Assembly (NCBI GenBank): GCA_030536575.1
Contig: JAUNPS010000026.1
Coordinates: 361-64,360 of the forward strand
Reading direction: 5' to 3'
Source of the DNA: Eubacteriales bacterium
Lineage (GTDB): Bacteria; Bacillota; Clostridia; Lachnospirales; Lachnospiraceae
DNA: 64,000 nt
Shown: one piece after another, positions 13,552 to 19,436 of the stretch
Position numbering within the stretch: the stretch's first letter is position 1
Layout of the letters: every line of letters begins with the position of its first letter
The notes under the pieces: model-generated
Told to the model about the DNA's origin: nothing
What the model saw: only the letters and a program-made list of their open reading frames with translations
The model's database searches: none
Made by a program: the position numbers and the translations under genes

Positions 13552-15138
13552 GTGAAGACAATGGGCGTATATTTAAATCCGGGAAATGAGCCGTTTCAAA
13601 TGGCTGTAAATTCGAAAATCTATGTCGATAAGACGGGGCTAATTTCCTATACAAATTCTGTGATAAAGACGGAGCAGCGTTTTTTATGTGTAAATCGTCC
13701 GCGGCGTTTTGGAAAGTCTATGGCGGCCAATATGTTGGCTGCATATTACAGTAAAAATGCGGATTCAGAAATATTATTTCGGAATCTGGAGATTTCAAAG
13801 GACCCTTCTTTTCACCAGCATTTGAACAAATATAATGTGATTTTCCTGAATATACAAGATTTTTTAAGCCGTACACATGAGATTACAAAAATGCGGACGT
13901 TGATTGAAAGAGCCGTACTGCGCGATTTGCTGAAAGCCTATCCGGACATAGATTATTTGGATCGGAACGATTTAAGCGGTGTGCTTCTGGATATTTATGG
14001 AGAAACCTCGGATACGTTTCTTTTTATTATTGACGAGTGGGACTGCATTTTCAGGGAGTATCAGACCGATACCAATGCACAGAAATTTTATTTGGATTTT
14101 ATCAGAAATCTTCTAAAAGACCGGAGTTACGTTGCACTGGCCTATATGACGGGGATTCTCCCTATAAAAAAGTACGGTTCTCATTCAGCGCTGAATATGT
14201 TCGATGAATTTTCGATGGCAAATCCTGGGCCGTTGTCGACTTTTGTCGGCTTTACGGAATCAGAAGTAAAGGCCTTATGCGCCGATTATTCCATGGATTT
14301 TGAAGAGATGAAGCGTTGGTATGACGGATATTGTTTTGAGGGGACAACGCATATTTATAGCCCGAAGTCTGTGGTCAGCTCTTTGCTTACCCGAACCTAT
14401 GATAACTTTTGGAATAAAACCGAGACCTTCGAAGCTTTACGGGACTATATTGTTCTGAATTATAAAGGGCTGAAGGATATGGTGATTGAACTGTTGGCGG
14501 GGAATCGGAAAAGGATTAATGTTCATACATTTTCCAATGATATGACGACGTTTCAGTCGGCGGATGATATCCTGACGTTGTTGGTGCATCTTGGGTATTT
14601 GGGGTATGATTTTGGAACGAAGGAGGTGTTTATACCGAATTCGGAGATTGCGGCAGAGTTTTGCAATGCGGTGGAGTCGGCAGGATGGGAACGCGTGATA
14701 CAGTCAATTCGGGAATCGGAGACACTTTTGCAGGCGACATTACAAAAAAACGGCGATGCAGTTGCCAGGCAGCTTTCTGAAGTGCATATGGAAACGTCGC
14801 TTCTTACCTATAATGATGAGAATGCACTTTCCTGCACGATTGCGTTGGCCTATTACAGCGCCAGGGAATATTATCAGGCGTTTCGGGAGCTCCCTTCCGG
14901 GAAAGGATTTGCAGATATTGTATACATTCCACGGAAAAATCATTTCGAAAACCCGGCCTTAGTTGTGGAATTAAAATGGAACCACTCTGTAGAAGGTGCA
15001 ATTTCGCAAATTAAACAAAAAAAATATGTGAAGTCTCTGGAAGATTATACGGGGAATCTGCTTCTTGTTGGAATAAATTATGATAAGAAAAAGAAAGAGC
15101 ATCAATGTATGATTGAAGAGTATAGAAAGAATGACTGA
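13552..15138 (+). CDS. Second AAA-ATPase-like + PD-(D/E)XK nuclease protein
   Basis: MGVYLNPGN..IYVDKTG, Walker A RPRRFGKS, Walker B FIIDEWD, C-terminal GFADIVYI...VELKW; own promoter TTGCGA-17-TAAAAT just upstream. Confidence 0.9.
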   Translation: MKTMGVYLNPGNEPFQMAVNSKIYVDKTGLISYTNSVIKTEQRFLCVNRPRRFGKSMAANMLAAYYSKNADSEILFRNLEISKDPSFHQHLNKYNVIFLNIQDFLSRTHEITKMRTLIERAVLRDLLKAYPDIDYLDRNDLSGVLLDIYGETSDTFLFIIDEWDCIFREYQTDTNAQKFYLDFIRNLLKDRSYVALAYMTGILPIKKYGSHSALNMFDEFSMANPGPLSTFVGFTESEVKALCADYSMDFEEMKRWYDGYCFEGTTHIYSPKSVVSSLLTRTYDNFWNKTETFEALRDYIVLNYKGLKDMVIELLAGNRKRINVHTFSNDMTTFQSADDILTLLVHLGYLGYDFGTKEVFIPNSEIAAEFCNAVESAGWERVIQSIRESETLLQATLQKNGDAVARQLSEVHMETSLLTYNDENALSCTIALAYYSAREYYQAFRELPSGKGFADIVYIPRKNHFENPALVVELKWNHSVEGAISQIKQKKYVKSLEDYTGNLLLVGINYDKKKKEHQCMIEEYRKND

Positions 15139-17084: not shown

Positions 17085-17930
17085 TTACTGGCAGAAGGTT
17101 TCCAGCTCCTTAATGCGCTTCAAGGCGTCTTTTCGGCCCAGCTTGTAGACGGCTTTCAGTTTTTCAGGGTCTTTTTCTCTTGCGCCCACTTCCAGGGCTT
17201 TGCTGGGGCGCATCACCAGAATTTCTCCGGTGCGTTCTCTTGCGGCTATGTAATCCAGCGTTTCATTGTAGCGAATATGGCGGTCGGCTACGGCCTGGAC
17301 GGCTTTCGGATAGCTGCGCAGGGCGGCACGGATGATGGGGAGCATGGAATTTTTCTGTTTTACGAAGCCTTTGGGCTGGGTCAGGATCACGATGTTGTGG
17401 GTATATCCGAGGCTTTCGAAATAGCGGATGGGGATGGAATCGGCAATGCCGCCGTCTAAAAGGGCATAATTGCCGATGTGCACGATGCGGGAGACAACGG
17501 GCATGGAGGCGGATGCGCGCATCCATTGTAAGTCTTCCGGGCCGCCGGTTTCGCATTTGTGATAAACGGGTTTTCCTGTCCGGATGTCCGTACAAGTAAC
17601 GTAAAATTCCATCGGGGAATTTTGAAAGGTGACGGTGTCGAAGGGGTCGAGGGTTTCGGGAATGTCGTGGTAGCAGAACTGTTCGCCGTAGAGGTCGCCT
17701 GTTTTGATAAGGGAGCGGAAGCTGGCGTAGCGGGGGTCGCGGCAGAAGCGGAGGTTGTAGCGAATGGTTCTGCCGGGTTGGTGGGATTTGTAGTTGCAGC
17801 CGAAGACGGCGCCGGCGGATACGCCGATGGCGCCGTCTACTTTGAGATTGTGTTCCATCATAACGTCGGTGACGCCGGCGGTGTATAAACCGCGCATGGC
17901 GCCGCCTTCCATAATTAAACCGGTCTTCAT
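17085..17930 (-). CDS. Patatin-like phospholipase family protein
   Basis: EGGAMRG oxyanion hole, GVSAG nucleophile elbow, LDGG catalytic Asp; promoter TTGCAT-17-TACAAT upstream. Confidence 0.92.
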   Translation of the reverse strand: MKTGLIMEGGAMRGLYTAGVTDVMMEHNLKVDGAIGVSAGAVFGCNYKSHQPGRTIRYNLRFCRDPRYASFRSLIKTGDLYGEQFCYHDIPETLDPFDTVTFQNSPMEFYVTCTDIRTGKPVYHKCETGGPEDLQWMRASASMPVVSRIVHIGNYALLDGGIADSIPIRYFESLGYTHNIVILTQPKGFVKQKNSMLPIIRAALRSYPKAVQAVADRHIRYNETLDYIAARERTGEILVMRPSKALEVGAREKDPEKLKAVYKLGRKDALKRIKELETFCQ

Positions 17931-18158
17931 TGATGACTCCTTTTGCCTTGGGGCATGTTTTGTGATGGAATGATTGTAGCACCGGAATGGATGGAATGCA
18001 AGCTTCCGGTGTTTGGGCGCTGTGCGGATTCATCCGAGGCGGGAATTTGGCATTCTATTCCAACGCAGCATTCATTCGTATGGATTCATTCTGTAAGCAT
18101 TACTCTGTTAAATTGCCGAGCTTGATTAAAAAAATATAAATTTAAGCAAAAAAGTATA

Positions 18159-18187
18159 TTGCAAAATGGAGACGCATATGCTATAAT
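18159..18187 (+). promoter_or_regulatory. Sigma70 promoter of antitoxin RNA 1 (repeated at 18572-18600 and 18979-19007)
   Basis: TTGCAA-17 nt-TATAAT with extended TG, conserved in all three units. Confidence 0.85.
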
Positions 18188-18193
18188 GTCAAC

Positions 18194-18270
18194 TGACAAT
18201 GAAGGAAAAGATAAGAATTACTCCATGTAGACAACAGTGAAAACCCCGGAGCCGACACTCTGGGGTTTTC
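18194..18270 (+). ncRNA. Predicted antitoxin sRNA 1 (RNAII-like)
   Basis: Short promoter-to-terminator unit with no plausible ORF. Carries ATGAAGGAAA and TACTCCATGTAGACA blocks that recur in the toxin-1 start region. The 5' end is estimated from promoter spacing. Confidence 0.7.
18240..18269. terminator. Bidirectional terminator shared by toxin mRNA and antitoxin (also 18647-18676, 19054-19083)
   Basis: AAAACCCCGGAG-loop-CTC(T/C)GGGGTTTT, with A4 and T4 flanks on both sides. Confidence 0.88.
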
Positions 18271-18323
18271 TATGCCTAATTTTTGGAAACGGAAAGGCGT
18301 TGGTTCCGCAGGCTGGTTACCGA

Positions 18324-18410
18324 TCAGTTATCGCCGTCCAGCCATTTGCTGATGAGATGACATATCACACCCGCCGCAACAGCGATTATGAAGGAAACAA
18401 TGTACTCCAT
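18324..18410 (-). CDS. Type I TA toxin, Fst/Ldr-like membrane peptide MEYIVSFIIAVAAGVICHLISKWLDGDN (28 aa)
   Basis: Translated by hand; single hydrophobic helix with AxxG motif, KWLD and charged tail; strong RBS AAGGAAGGGGGTG. Confidence 0.85.
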   Translation of the reverse strand: MEYIVSFIIAVAAGVICHLISKWLDGDN

Positions 18411-18606
18411 ATAGACACCCCCTTCCTTTTACCAGGTATCGGAGGCGGTAACAGGTAAATTATATCATATCATTCGTCAAAATTCTATATATTTTTTGTT
18501 AAAGCAAATTTTAAAATTGCATAAGAAGTGCGACTTGAGAAAATTATTAGAAATTTAAGCAAAAAAGTATATTGCAAAATGGAGATGCATATGCTATAAT
18601 GCCATT

Positions 18607-18677
18607 AGGCAAAAGGATACCAACAGTCCATATAATACGACAAATGAAAACCCCGGAGCTGGCACTCCGGGGTTTTC
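18607..18677 (+). ncRNA. Predicted antitoxin sRNA 2
   Basis: Promoter 18572-18600, terminator 18647-18676; AAAGGATACCAA and TCCATATAA blocks match the toxin-2 start region. Confidence 0.7.
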
Positions 18678-18730
18678 TATGCCTAATTTTCGGAAACGGA
18701 AAGGCGTTAGGTCCGCAGGCTGGTTACCGA

Positions 18731-18817
18731 CTACTTATCGCCGTCCAACCGTTTGCTAATGAGGTGGCAAACCACACCCGCCGCGACAGCGACAAGAAAG
18801 GATACCAAAGTATCCAT
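18731..18817 (-). CDS. Type I TA toxin, Fst/Ldr-like peptide MDTLVSFLVAVAAGVVCHLISKRLDGDK (28 aa)
   Basis: Translated by hand; same architecture as copy 1; RBS GGAAAGGGGGTG. Confidence 0.85.
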   Translation of the reverse strand: MDTLVSFLVAVAAGVVCHLISKRLDGDK

Positions 18818-19013
18818 ATAACACACCCCCTTTCCGTACCAAGTATCGGGGGCGGTAACAGGTAAATTATATCATATCATTCGTCAAATTTCTATATATT
18901 TTTTGTTAAAGCAAATTTTAAAATTGCATAAGAATCACGACTTAAGAAAATTATTAGAAATTTAAGCAAAAAGGCATATTGCAAAATGGAGATGCATATG
19001 CTATAATGCCATT

Positions 19014-19084
19014 AGGCAAAAGGATACCAACAGTCCATATAATACGACAAATGAAAACCCCGGAGCTGGCACTCCGGGGTTTTC
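19014..19084 (+). ncRNA. Predicted antitoxin sRNA 3
   Basis: Identical to antitoxin 2, shifted by 407 bp. Confidence 0.7.
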
Positions 19085-19137
19085 TATGCCTAATTTTCGG
19101 AAACGGAAAGGCGTTAGGTCCGCAGGCTGGTTACCGA

Positions 19138-19224
19138 CTACTTATCGCCGTCCAACCGTTTGCTAATGAGGTGGCAAACCACACCCGCCGCGACAGCGAC
19201 AAGAAAGGATACCAAAGTATCCAT
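19138..19224 (-). CDS. Type I TA toxin copy 3, identical peptide to copy 2
   Basis: Same 87-nt ORF as 18731-18817. Confidence 0.85.
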   Translation of the reverse strand: MDTLVSFLVAVAAGVVCHLISKRLDGDK

Positions 19225-19436
19225 ATAATACACCCCCTTTCCGTACCAAGTATCGGGGGCGGTAACAAGTAAATCATATCATAAAATTCTTCAAAATTCT
19301 ACATATTTTTTGCAAAAATAAATTTAAAAATTGCTGAAGAACTGAAACTTGAAATCCCCGCCCGGTTGTGCTAATATCCATGTTAAACGACAGTATCGCA
19401 TTACAGGAAGGAGAACCCGCCAGGGCACACAAAAGA

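Follow-up and report, generated by a model that had tools for sequence, protein, structure and literature searches.

The 64,000-nucleotide stretch of contig JAUNPS010000026.1 analysed here (the window) comes from a Eubacteriales bacterium of the family Lachnospiraceae (GenBank assembly GCA_030536575.1). Between a patatin-like lipase gene and an EamA transporter gene it carries an intergenic region of 1.4 kb, the sole content of which is a set of repeated modules. These form a single tandem array at window positions 18138-19352, with a period of 407 bp, 3.0 copies and 89% matches in Tandem Repeats Finder, as anticipated by the first-pass annotation of this DNA, which had described three units of ~407 bp. 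Each unit contains a promoter and a predicted small RNA (sRNA) on the plus strand and, converging with it on the minus strand, an open reading frame (ORF) for a hydrophobic peptide of 28 amino acids (aa). Each 407-bp unit is very probably a par-type type I toxin-antitoxin module, and the terms toxin and antitoxin are used below for its predicted products. The elements of the array and its two flanking genes are as follows (window positions, strand, element).

17085-17930, minus strand, patatin-like lipase gene flanking the array
18138-18544, no strand, unit 1 (this and the next two from Tandem Repeats Finder, alignment and own-genome search)
18545-18951, no strand, unit 2
18952-19352, no strand, unit 3
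18159-18187, plus strand, sRNA-1 promoter, TTGCAA-17-TATAAT with TG upstream (promoter scan, also for the next two)
18572-18600, plus strand, sRNA-2 promoter, TTGCAA-17-TATAAT with TG upstream
18979-19007, plus strand, sRNA-3 promoter, TTGCAA-17-TATAAT with TG upstream
18194-18272, plus strand, predicted antitoxin sRNA-1, ~80 nucleotides (nt), its start placed 7 nt past the -10
18199-18208 (ATGAAGGAAA) and 18219-18233 (TACTCCATGTAGACA), plus strand, repeat blocks of sRNA-1, direct-repeat copies of the plus strand over toxin-1 codons 1-8
18607-18682, plus strand, predicted antitoxin sRNA-2, 76 nt, terminator at 18646-18677
19014-19089, plus strand, predicted antitoxin sRNA-3, identical to sRNA-2, terminator at 19053-19084
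18239-18270, no strand, shared bidirectional intrinsic terminator of unit 1, read from the sequence; the same element was scanned in units 2 and 3
18324-18410, minus strand, toxin-1 ORF, 28 aa, MEYIVSFIIAVAAGVICHLISKWLDGDN (ORF list; family-profile E 1e-18; coding pattern; weak Fst_toxin match)
18731-18817, minus strand, toxin-2 ORF, 28 aa, MDTLVSFLVAVAAGVVCHLISKRLDGDK, Trp23 replaced by Arg (ORF list, family profile)
19138-19224, minus strand, toxin-3 ORF, peptide identical to that of toxin-2 (ORF list, family profile)
18416-18422, minus strand, toxin-1 Shine-Dalgarno (SD) sequence GGGGGUG (sequence)
18316-18322, minus strand, toxin-1 3' arm CGGUAAC of the 5'-3' helix, one base past the stop codon
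18430-18436, minus strand, toxin-1 segment CUGGUAA, upstream of the SD, which can pair locally with the 5' arm instead (RNAalifold)
18441-18452, minus strand, toxin-1 mRNA 5' end, with arm GUUACCG (18452-18446) overlapping the anti-SD tract CGCCUCC (18447-18441) (minimum free energy (MFE) fold)
18459-18467, minus strand, toxin-1 extended -10 TGATATAAT (sequence)
18853-18871, minus strand, toxin-2 5' arm (18859-18853) and -10 TATAAT (18871-18866) (sequence, promoter scan)
19260-19278, minus strand, toxin-3 5' arm (19266-19260) and weaker -10 TATGAT (19278-19273) (sequence)
19368-20357, plus strand, EamA transporter gene flanking the array

The plus-strand promoter TTGCAA-17-TATAAT and the bidirectional terminator, both assigned earlier to every unit, were found again in all three; the terminators are 14-bp G+C-rich hairpins with U-runs on both strands, and compensatory changes in them are visible in the family alignment. 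The predicted length of the sRNA is 76-82 nt, instead of the ~70 nt given by the first-pass annotation. A convergent 28-aa ORF with a strong SD and an extended -10 was likewise recovered in each unit, GGGGGTG being located 5-6 nt before the ATG in all three, and the correction concerns only unit 3, where the toxin -10 reads TATGAT and not TATAAT. A consensus promoter scan flagged the toxin promoter of unit 2 alone. The mRNA of toxin-1 is predicted to run from ~18453 to ~18232. Of the two promoters, that of the sRNA is nearer to the consensus, as would suit an antitoxin produced in excess.

At the default length setting the only ORFs displayed over the array are on the plus strand (73, 97 and 97 aa), and the toxin ORFs do not appear. 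Since the comparable antisense frames are open in just 5 of 67 relatives, these plus-strand ORFs are shadows; the earlier statement that the ORF track misses all toxins and displays opposite-strand shadows thus proved correct, and a coding gene on the plus strand was rejected. Lack of conservation of the 28-aa ORF in homologous units had been set beforehand as a refuting observation: a DNA search across 60 relatives yielded homologous units in several genera, and the ORF is kept in all of them. A total of 104 distinct modules, mostly from Lachnospiraceae, was gathered. Their start codons are ATG (84), TTG (15) and GTG (5), a GGAGG or GGGGG tract precedes the start by 5-8 nt in every one, and the peptides fall into two length classes, one of 28 aa and one of 31-32 aa with a longer polar tail. 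Over codons 9-26 of 67 representatives the entropy at the three codon positions is 0.47/0.22/0.67, and 49% of codon differences in these representatives are synonymous. Lys22 and Leu24 are invariant, Trp23 is found in 66 of the 67 and Gly14 in 60. Judged from this pattern of substitution, the 28-aa ORF is a translated and constrained peptide. Unit 1 (..SKWLDGDN) and 66 of the 67 representatives show a hydrophobic transmembrane helix followed by Trp and a charged C-terminus. The 32-aa peptides of the family are annotated as 'hypothetical protein' in the public collection, and a literature search on the motifs of the peptides was without result.

From the sRNA -10 to the terminator, the DNA repeats in direct orientation the plus strand over the toxin start codon and the first 7-8 codons, with the sequences ATGAAGGAAA and TACTCCAT(G/A)TAGACA in unit 1 and AAAGGATACCAA..TCCATATAA in units 2 and 3. 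Because the two genes converge, the sRNA is complementary to the toxin initiation region, and the overlap of toxin mRNA and sRNA in cis is confined to the shared terminator. These direct repeats, missing from the first-pass annotation, are the most diagnostic par feature of the locus, and they co-vary unit by unit: they differ between unit 1, units 2 and 3 and every relative, yet match inside each module. For 92 modules the direct-repeat score of the toxin start against its own sRNA region is 19.5, as compared with 9.7 for non-cognate pairs, the cognate pair being best or tied in 80%. The GTG start codon of one relative is mirrored as GTG in its sRNA copy. The pairing of sRNA and toxin is always interrupted at codons 2-3, leaving two blocks that resemble the DRa/DRb repeats of par. 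Furthermore, 96 of 104 relatives have an sRNA -10 downstream of the toxin. Calculated energies in the window are -35.7 (unit 1) and -37.5 kcal/mol for the cognate duplexes and -20.9 to -25.3 kcal/mol for crossed ones, sRNA-1 forming a duplex of -35.7 kcal/mol with its own toxin mRNA and of -25.3 kcal/mol with those of toxins 2 and 3. The distinct pairing sequences of unit 1 on the one hand and of units 2 and 3 on the other would thus give two partly insulated specificities. Directly behind the sRNA -10 (18188-18200, 18601-18613 and 19008-19020) and outside the pairing region is a further block, GCCAnTAGGCAAA, with a GCC/GGC inverted repeat. It is the best-conserved DNA of the module across genera and the sole part that the DNA search recovers in distant genomes.

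The toxin mRNA also contains pairings of its own. It is expected to begin 6-7 nt past the -10 with GUUACCG, a heptamer complementary to the CGGUAAC located one base past the stop codon; this pair of arms is matched in 23 of 25 cases. Other versions of the two arms are matched as well, GUUGUCCU/AGGACAAC in 10 of 10 and GUUGUCC/GGACAAC in 8 of 8, in addition to GUUGCUC/GAGCAAC, GUUGUCAU/AUGACAAC, GCUACCA/UGGUAGC, GUUGUCU/AGACAAC, GUUGUCGC/GCGACAAC and GUUGUCAC/GUGACAAC, so that the family holds eight or more compensated variants. RNAalifold on the full MAFFT alignment missed this long-range helix. In the MAFFT alignment the 3' arm of the 32-aa subfamily was shifted by 3 columns relative to that of the 28-aa subfamily, and for this reason 28-nt constructs with fixed anchors were built instead. 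The anchors were independent of pairing: the 5' arm was fixed at alignment column 11, and the 3' arm at the stop codon, offset by a single value for each length class. Rows that were anchored wrongly were retained and count against the helix. On this basis 86.1% of cells are paired, 6 of the 8 pairs are changed on both sides (79 such cells), and the covariation score is 0.451, as compared with 0.223 for shuffled constructs (0/500 as high) and 0.04-0.22 with the partner slid. The 5'-3' block and the anti-SD tract had both been noticed at the outset; both pairings are present in the window and recur in ~65 relatives, and the former is now backed by compensatory changes across the family. In the 31-32-aa subfamily (e.g. 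locus L135:457-644) the 3' arm lies within the coding tail (..GAC AAC = Asp-Asn), and consequently the same bases are constrained by both peptide and RNA structure. An extra hairpin was observed between the 3' arm and the terminator (18276-18312 in unit 1; columns 152-172 of alignment A5), with the compensatory variants UAGUGG/CCACUA, UACUGG/CCAGUA, UAGCGG/CCGCUA and UACCGG/CCGGUA in relatives.

Pairing of CGCCUCC with GGGGGUG is present in the MFE folds of the window units, and 60 of 65 relatives have mRNA nt 8-13 as the MFE partner of the SD. The probability of the SD being paired is 0.79, a modest gap from the 0.68 of the shuffled control, and the pairing register varies by subfamily, which bars a covariation count. 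Sequestration of the SD by the anti-SD tract is therefore given here as a prediction from the modelled folds. The 5' arm has, in addition, a local partner upstream of the SD (UGGUAA or GGCAAC), for which RNAalifold gives the pairs 13-16/30-33 in alignment A4 (GC 31 / AU 22). As this local pairing excludes the 5'-3' helix, the arm has two mutually exclusive partners, an arrangement that may reflect a co-transcriptional switch, in which a transient 5' hairpin would guard the emerging end of the RNA until the long-range helix takes over.

On the minus strand of each unit, a mRNA of ~220 nt would encode a 28-aa single-helix membrane peptide composed of a hydrophobic helix, K-W/R-L-D and an acidic tail. 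Three locks would act on its translation. The first 7 nt of the mRNA (GUUACCG) would pair with CGGUAAC past the stop codon, hiding the 5' end in the manner of the upstream helix of par; the neighbouring CGCCUCC tract would pair with the SD; and the plus-strand sRNA, made from the stronger promoter, would pair in trans with nt -8 to ~+24 and block initiation. We infer that both RNAs are made at the window locus and that the peptide is toxic when over-made. The role of the modules could be stabilisation of the region or a stress or persistence function.

The par locus is characterised by convergent promoters, a bidirectional terminator, DRa/DRb repeats over the initiation site, a stem-loop at the SD and an upstream helix at the 5' end (PMC7472228). 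At the RNA level four of these five features are found at the locus, namely the convergent promoters, a terminator common to both RNAs, direct repeats, and the 5'-end helix; the fifth, the stem-loop at the SD, is predicted. The pAD1 design proposed by the first-pass annotation (convergent RNAs, common terminator, SD stem and 5'-3' helix) is present in every architectural feature that it named, the SD stem as a prediction. The likeness to pAD1 par (RNA I/Fst and RNA II) covers the convergent promoters, the shared bidirectional terminator, the opposite-sense direct repeats, the predicted SD stem and the 5'-end helix. The repeat sequences of par are themselves poorly conserved (PMC7472228). In contrast to pAD1 par, the window modules are chromosomal and triplicated, PxxxG is replaced by AxxxG in their peptide, a length of 76-82 nt is predicted for the sRNA whereas RNA II measures ~40-65 nt, and the toxin mRNA has a second, local, covarying partner for its 5' arm.

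Peptides of the Fst/Ldr group have a conserved Trp between the transmembrane helix and the charged tail, as well as the motif P/D/S/T-xxx-G, Fst itself having Val at the Trp position (PMC7472228). The window peptides share with Fst of pAD1 a length of ~30 aa, the transmembrane helix, the Trp-or-Val position, Leu-Asp and the acidic tail. Comparison of the family with Fst by hhalign (the Fst sequence was checked against PDB 2KV5) gave a gapless alignment of 18 columns with G/G, IS(K/R)(W/V)LD and the acidic tail. The Pfam Fst_toxin match of unit 1 is the best six-frame match in the whole genome. The toxin mRNAs also have a counterpart in Rfam: SpF66 (RF02442), described as a Streptococcus 'sRNA', matches all three end to end with 24.6-26.2 bits (E 8e-4 to 2e-3). 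Its consensus starts with guuACCG and encodes ..KWLDGKE*, and the likeness extends over the guuACCG 5' end, the spacing of SD and AUG, the KWLDG coding block and the terminator. As the gathering score is 42 bits, the window units are distant relatives of SpF66 and not members. A literature search for 'SpF66' returned malaria-vaccine papers only.

Other known systems share single aspects of the modules. In Staphylococcus aureus, SprA1AS overlaps the 3' end of the toxin mRNA and acts in trans at the translation start in the 5' region (PMC8594479); SprA1/SprA1AS is thus alike in trans action despite 3' overlap, and differs in peptide sequence. Tandem Fst homologues, Fst-A and Fst-B, are found in S. 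pneumoniae (PMC2887945), and type I loci are prone to tandem duplication (Fozo et al. 2010). The same study reported Fst/Ldr superfamily sequences in Clostridium bolteae and C. asparagiforme, detected by PSI-BLAST/TBLASTN. Both species are now placed in Lachnospiraceae; these sequences, described there without an RNA architecture, were set beside the window clade by description only.

In the hok mRNA of plasmid R1, long-range pairing of the 5' and 3' ends keeps the full-length toxin mRNA inert, and an alternative local pairing exists at the 5' end. The fold-back of 5' and 3' ends and the local 5'-end alternative are the likeness of hok/sok to the window toxin mRNA. The hok peptide is unrelated and Sok overlaps the 5' leader in cis; hok moreover needs 3' trimming and a leader ORF, neither of which was seen in the window modules. 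The proposed folding pathway of the 5' arm is comparable to those of hok and AapA. We know of no description of such a pathway for par-type loci, and of the leads from this work the 5' arm with its two partners is the most original.

Several results weigh against assignment of the units to par and Fst. All peptides scored below the curated cut-offs in the hidden Markov model (HMM) search against the Fst models that had been suggested as a check: Pfam PF13955 (Fst_toxin) gave 16.3 bits for unit 1 only, with a cut-off of 36, and NCBIfam NF033608 (type_I_tox_Fst) gave E 0.008 at best, unit 1 reaching 12.1 bits with a cut-off of 26. The hhalign probability for the family and Fst is 8%. A search of PDB sequences with the family profile found nothing relevant, only a chance match to a glutathione transferase, and no family of par antitoxins (RNA II-type) was among the Rfam matches up to E 10. 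Inspection of the toxin-strand terminator loops of units 1-3 revealed no YUNR U-turn, a motif that is lacking in some par homologues (PMC7472228). The P/D/S/T-xxx-G(C) motif is represented in the window by A-V-A-A-G (55 representatives have A at position 10, 7 have S and 5 have T), with Gly14 kept as stated above and the Cys three residues after the Gly rather than directly next to it. At codon 23, toxins 2 and 3 have Arg (CGG; 18746-18748 and 19153-19155) at the place of the otherwise almost universal Trp (TGG), a substitution by which the toxin may be attenuated or altered; all regulatory elements of units 2 and 3 are intact. Finally, none of the public sequencing runs searched contains the window locus, and no sRNA was seen in the contigs of the related module of Eubacterium sp. 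14-2, which carry no strand information.

The Pfam Fst model, run over the own genome and 14 control genomes, found no bona fide Fst that could serve as a yardstick. A C. difficile type I toxin model matched with E 0.0015, far under its cut-off. A KWLD peptide encoded on an E. faecalis plasmid is unrecognised by the Fst HMMs too and offers no bridge. Taken together, the sequences provide a weak link to Fst at the protein level. For the Eubacterium sp. 14-2 module, contigs from two mouse-gut metatranscriptomes cover positions 461-633 only, that is from 6 nt past the toxin -10 through the terminator, with zero depth on both flanks; in runs labelled as metagenomic, contigs also extend over much of the flanks. 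The metatranscriptome contigs are unstranded, and many species contribute to the depth over the conserved coding block. In this relative the contigs support the toxin mRNA as predicted, including its 5' end.

A different reading is that the sRNA regulates a small membrane protein with a physiological role in membrane or stress adaptation, which is non-toxic at natural levels and shows no addiction or toxin-antitoxin behaviour. Toxicity of the peptide is a prediction, the array is located among ordinary chromosomal genes, the function of chromosomal Fst/Ldr relatives is unsettled (PMC7472228), and W23R in units 2 and 3 would be in keeping with such a role. However, the full par regulatory design serves to prevent translation and is conserved in ~100 modules, and the same module on small plasmids fits a stabilising role, and this reading is considered unlikely. 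It is far less probable still that the units are a non-coding repeat or a decayed remnant with 28-aa ORFs and promoters arising by chance: the ORFs escape gene callers, a collection of 15 billion proteins lacks the 28-aa peptides and some relatives are clearly decayed, but 67 diverged representatives have kept the ORF open and show substitutions typical of coding DNA, the SD and the start codon are conserved, and all three window copies are intact. Equally improbable is that the peptide is a leaderless bacteriocin, with the ABC transporters 2 kb downstream as its exporters. Its short, hydrophobic nature and two ABC exporter genes at 21068-24606 might speak for this, but the tail is acidic and not cationic, the relatives are found in unrelated contexts with none of the window's flanking genes, and a convergent antisense RNA against the start codon is no feature of bacteriocins. 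The par-type toxin-antitoxin module consequently remains the preferred interpretation of each unit.

Units 2 and 3 of this array are 96% identical and units 1 and 2 are 85% identical. Judged from these values, a recent duplication seems to have given rise to units 2 and 3. In the unit alignment, unit 2 is a mosaic, with sRNA and toxin like those of unit 3 and a spacer like that of unit 1, which fits unequal crossing-over. No further copy of the module was found in the own assembly (4.8 Mb, 100 contigs) by DNA search or by peptide profile. The genes around the patatin and EamA flanks are ordinary chromosomal ones, with no mobile-element genes among them, in line with the chromosomal setting claimed in the first-pass annotation. 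Insertion of a mobile element with genes of its own was ruled out, the 1.4-kb intergenic region carrying the modules alone. In a genome of the same genus (L141:1067-1482, G006:C113) the patatin and EamA genes are adjacent and separated by a spacer of ~415 bp, in which no trace of similarity to the module was detected. None of the fetched loci of relatives shares the flanking genes of the array. From this empty site and from the unshared flanks it follows that the module reached the site in this lineage and then multiplied. It is tempting, if doubtful on balance, to combine the 5'-arm switch with an array that is evolving insulated specificities, unit 1 as opposed to units 2 and 3 with a W23R toxin that may be attenuated. 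Elsewhere in the window, a gene at 13552-15138 is predicted to encode an AAA-ATPase fused to a PD-(D/E)XK nuclease domain and has a lower G+C content (0.41-0.45, as compared with ~0.53 around it).

Of 301 genera sampled in the same GTDB family, 103 are matched by a peptide profile built from nine peptides (alignment A2). Many of the matches have E values of 1e-12 to 1e-18, and in some relatives there are up to 8 copies per genome. The scan for related loci used a tighter alignment (A3), the diverse alignment A2 having no usable conserved stretch. At least 475 stretches were confirmed, with one genome per species; their record titles are almost all Lachnospiraceae, largely from animal guts, and their genera include Roseburia, Dorea, Acetatifactor, Eisenbergiella, Mediterraneibacter and Kineothrix, among others. 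A full module of the KWLD type is found on a 6.9-kb plasmid of Mediterraneibacter gnavus NBRC 114413 (L145). Against plasmids, tblastn gave weak matches, chiefly to Enterococcus (197 records, mostly conjugative plasmids) and to Streptococcus. An E. faecalis plasmid locus (L144) has the same design, with the toxin ..AHYICKWLDSKDKR and a repeat of the start region beyond the terminator. Based on these sequences, the window modules are assigned to a 'KWLD' branch of par-like loci with members in both Bacilli and Clostridia. Three further peptide matches (H26-H28) are to 7-8.5-kb 'bajarodino virus' records from Peromyscus samples; together, small plasmids and the small virus-like records from rodent samples provide routes for spread of the module. 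Decayed modules were observed at three loci, L006 (G001:C4), L026 (G022:C9) and L011 (G007:C6), in which the toxin start region is lost or only a fragment is left, one of them beside a tRNA gene. Both L006 and L026 have an intact sRNA promoter and sRNA, and may represent orphan antitoxins.

Apart from C. difficile, hardly any type I toxin-antitoxin system has to our knowledge been documented in gut commensal Clostridia. Of the Lachnospiraceae genera sampled, about one in three contains the clade described here, which is located on chromosomes and small plasmids and has been missed by annotation. The kind of system is already well known, and the finding leaves the working principles of such systems unchanged. 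The Pfam and NCBIfam Fst models miss the clade, and a dedicated protein HMM together with a covariance model would allow its annotation. Furthermore, the ~100 diverged modules are a natural covariation data set for the co-evolution of a par-type antitoxin RNA with the locks of its toxin mRNA. The value of the finding therefore lies chiefly in the annotation of gut Firmicutes and in this data set.

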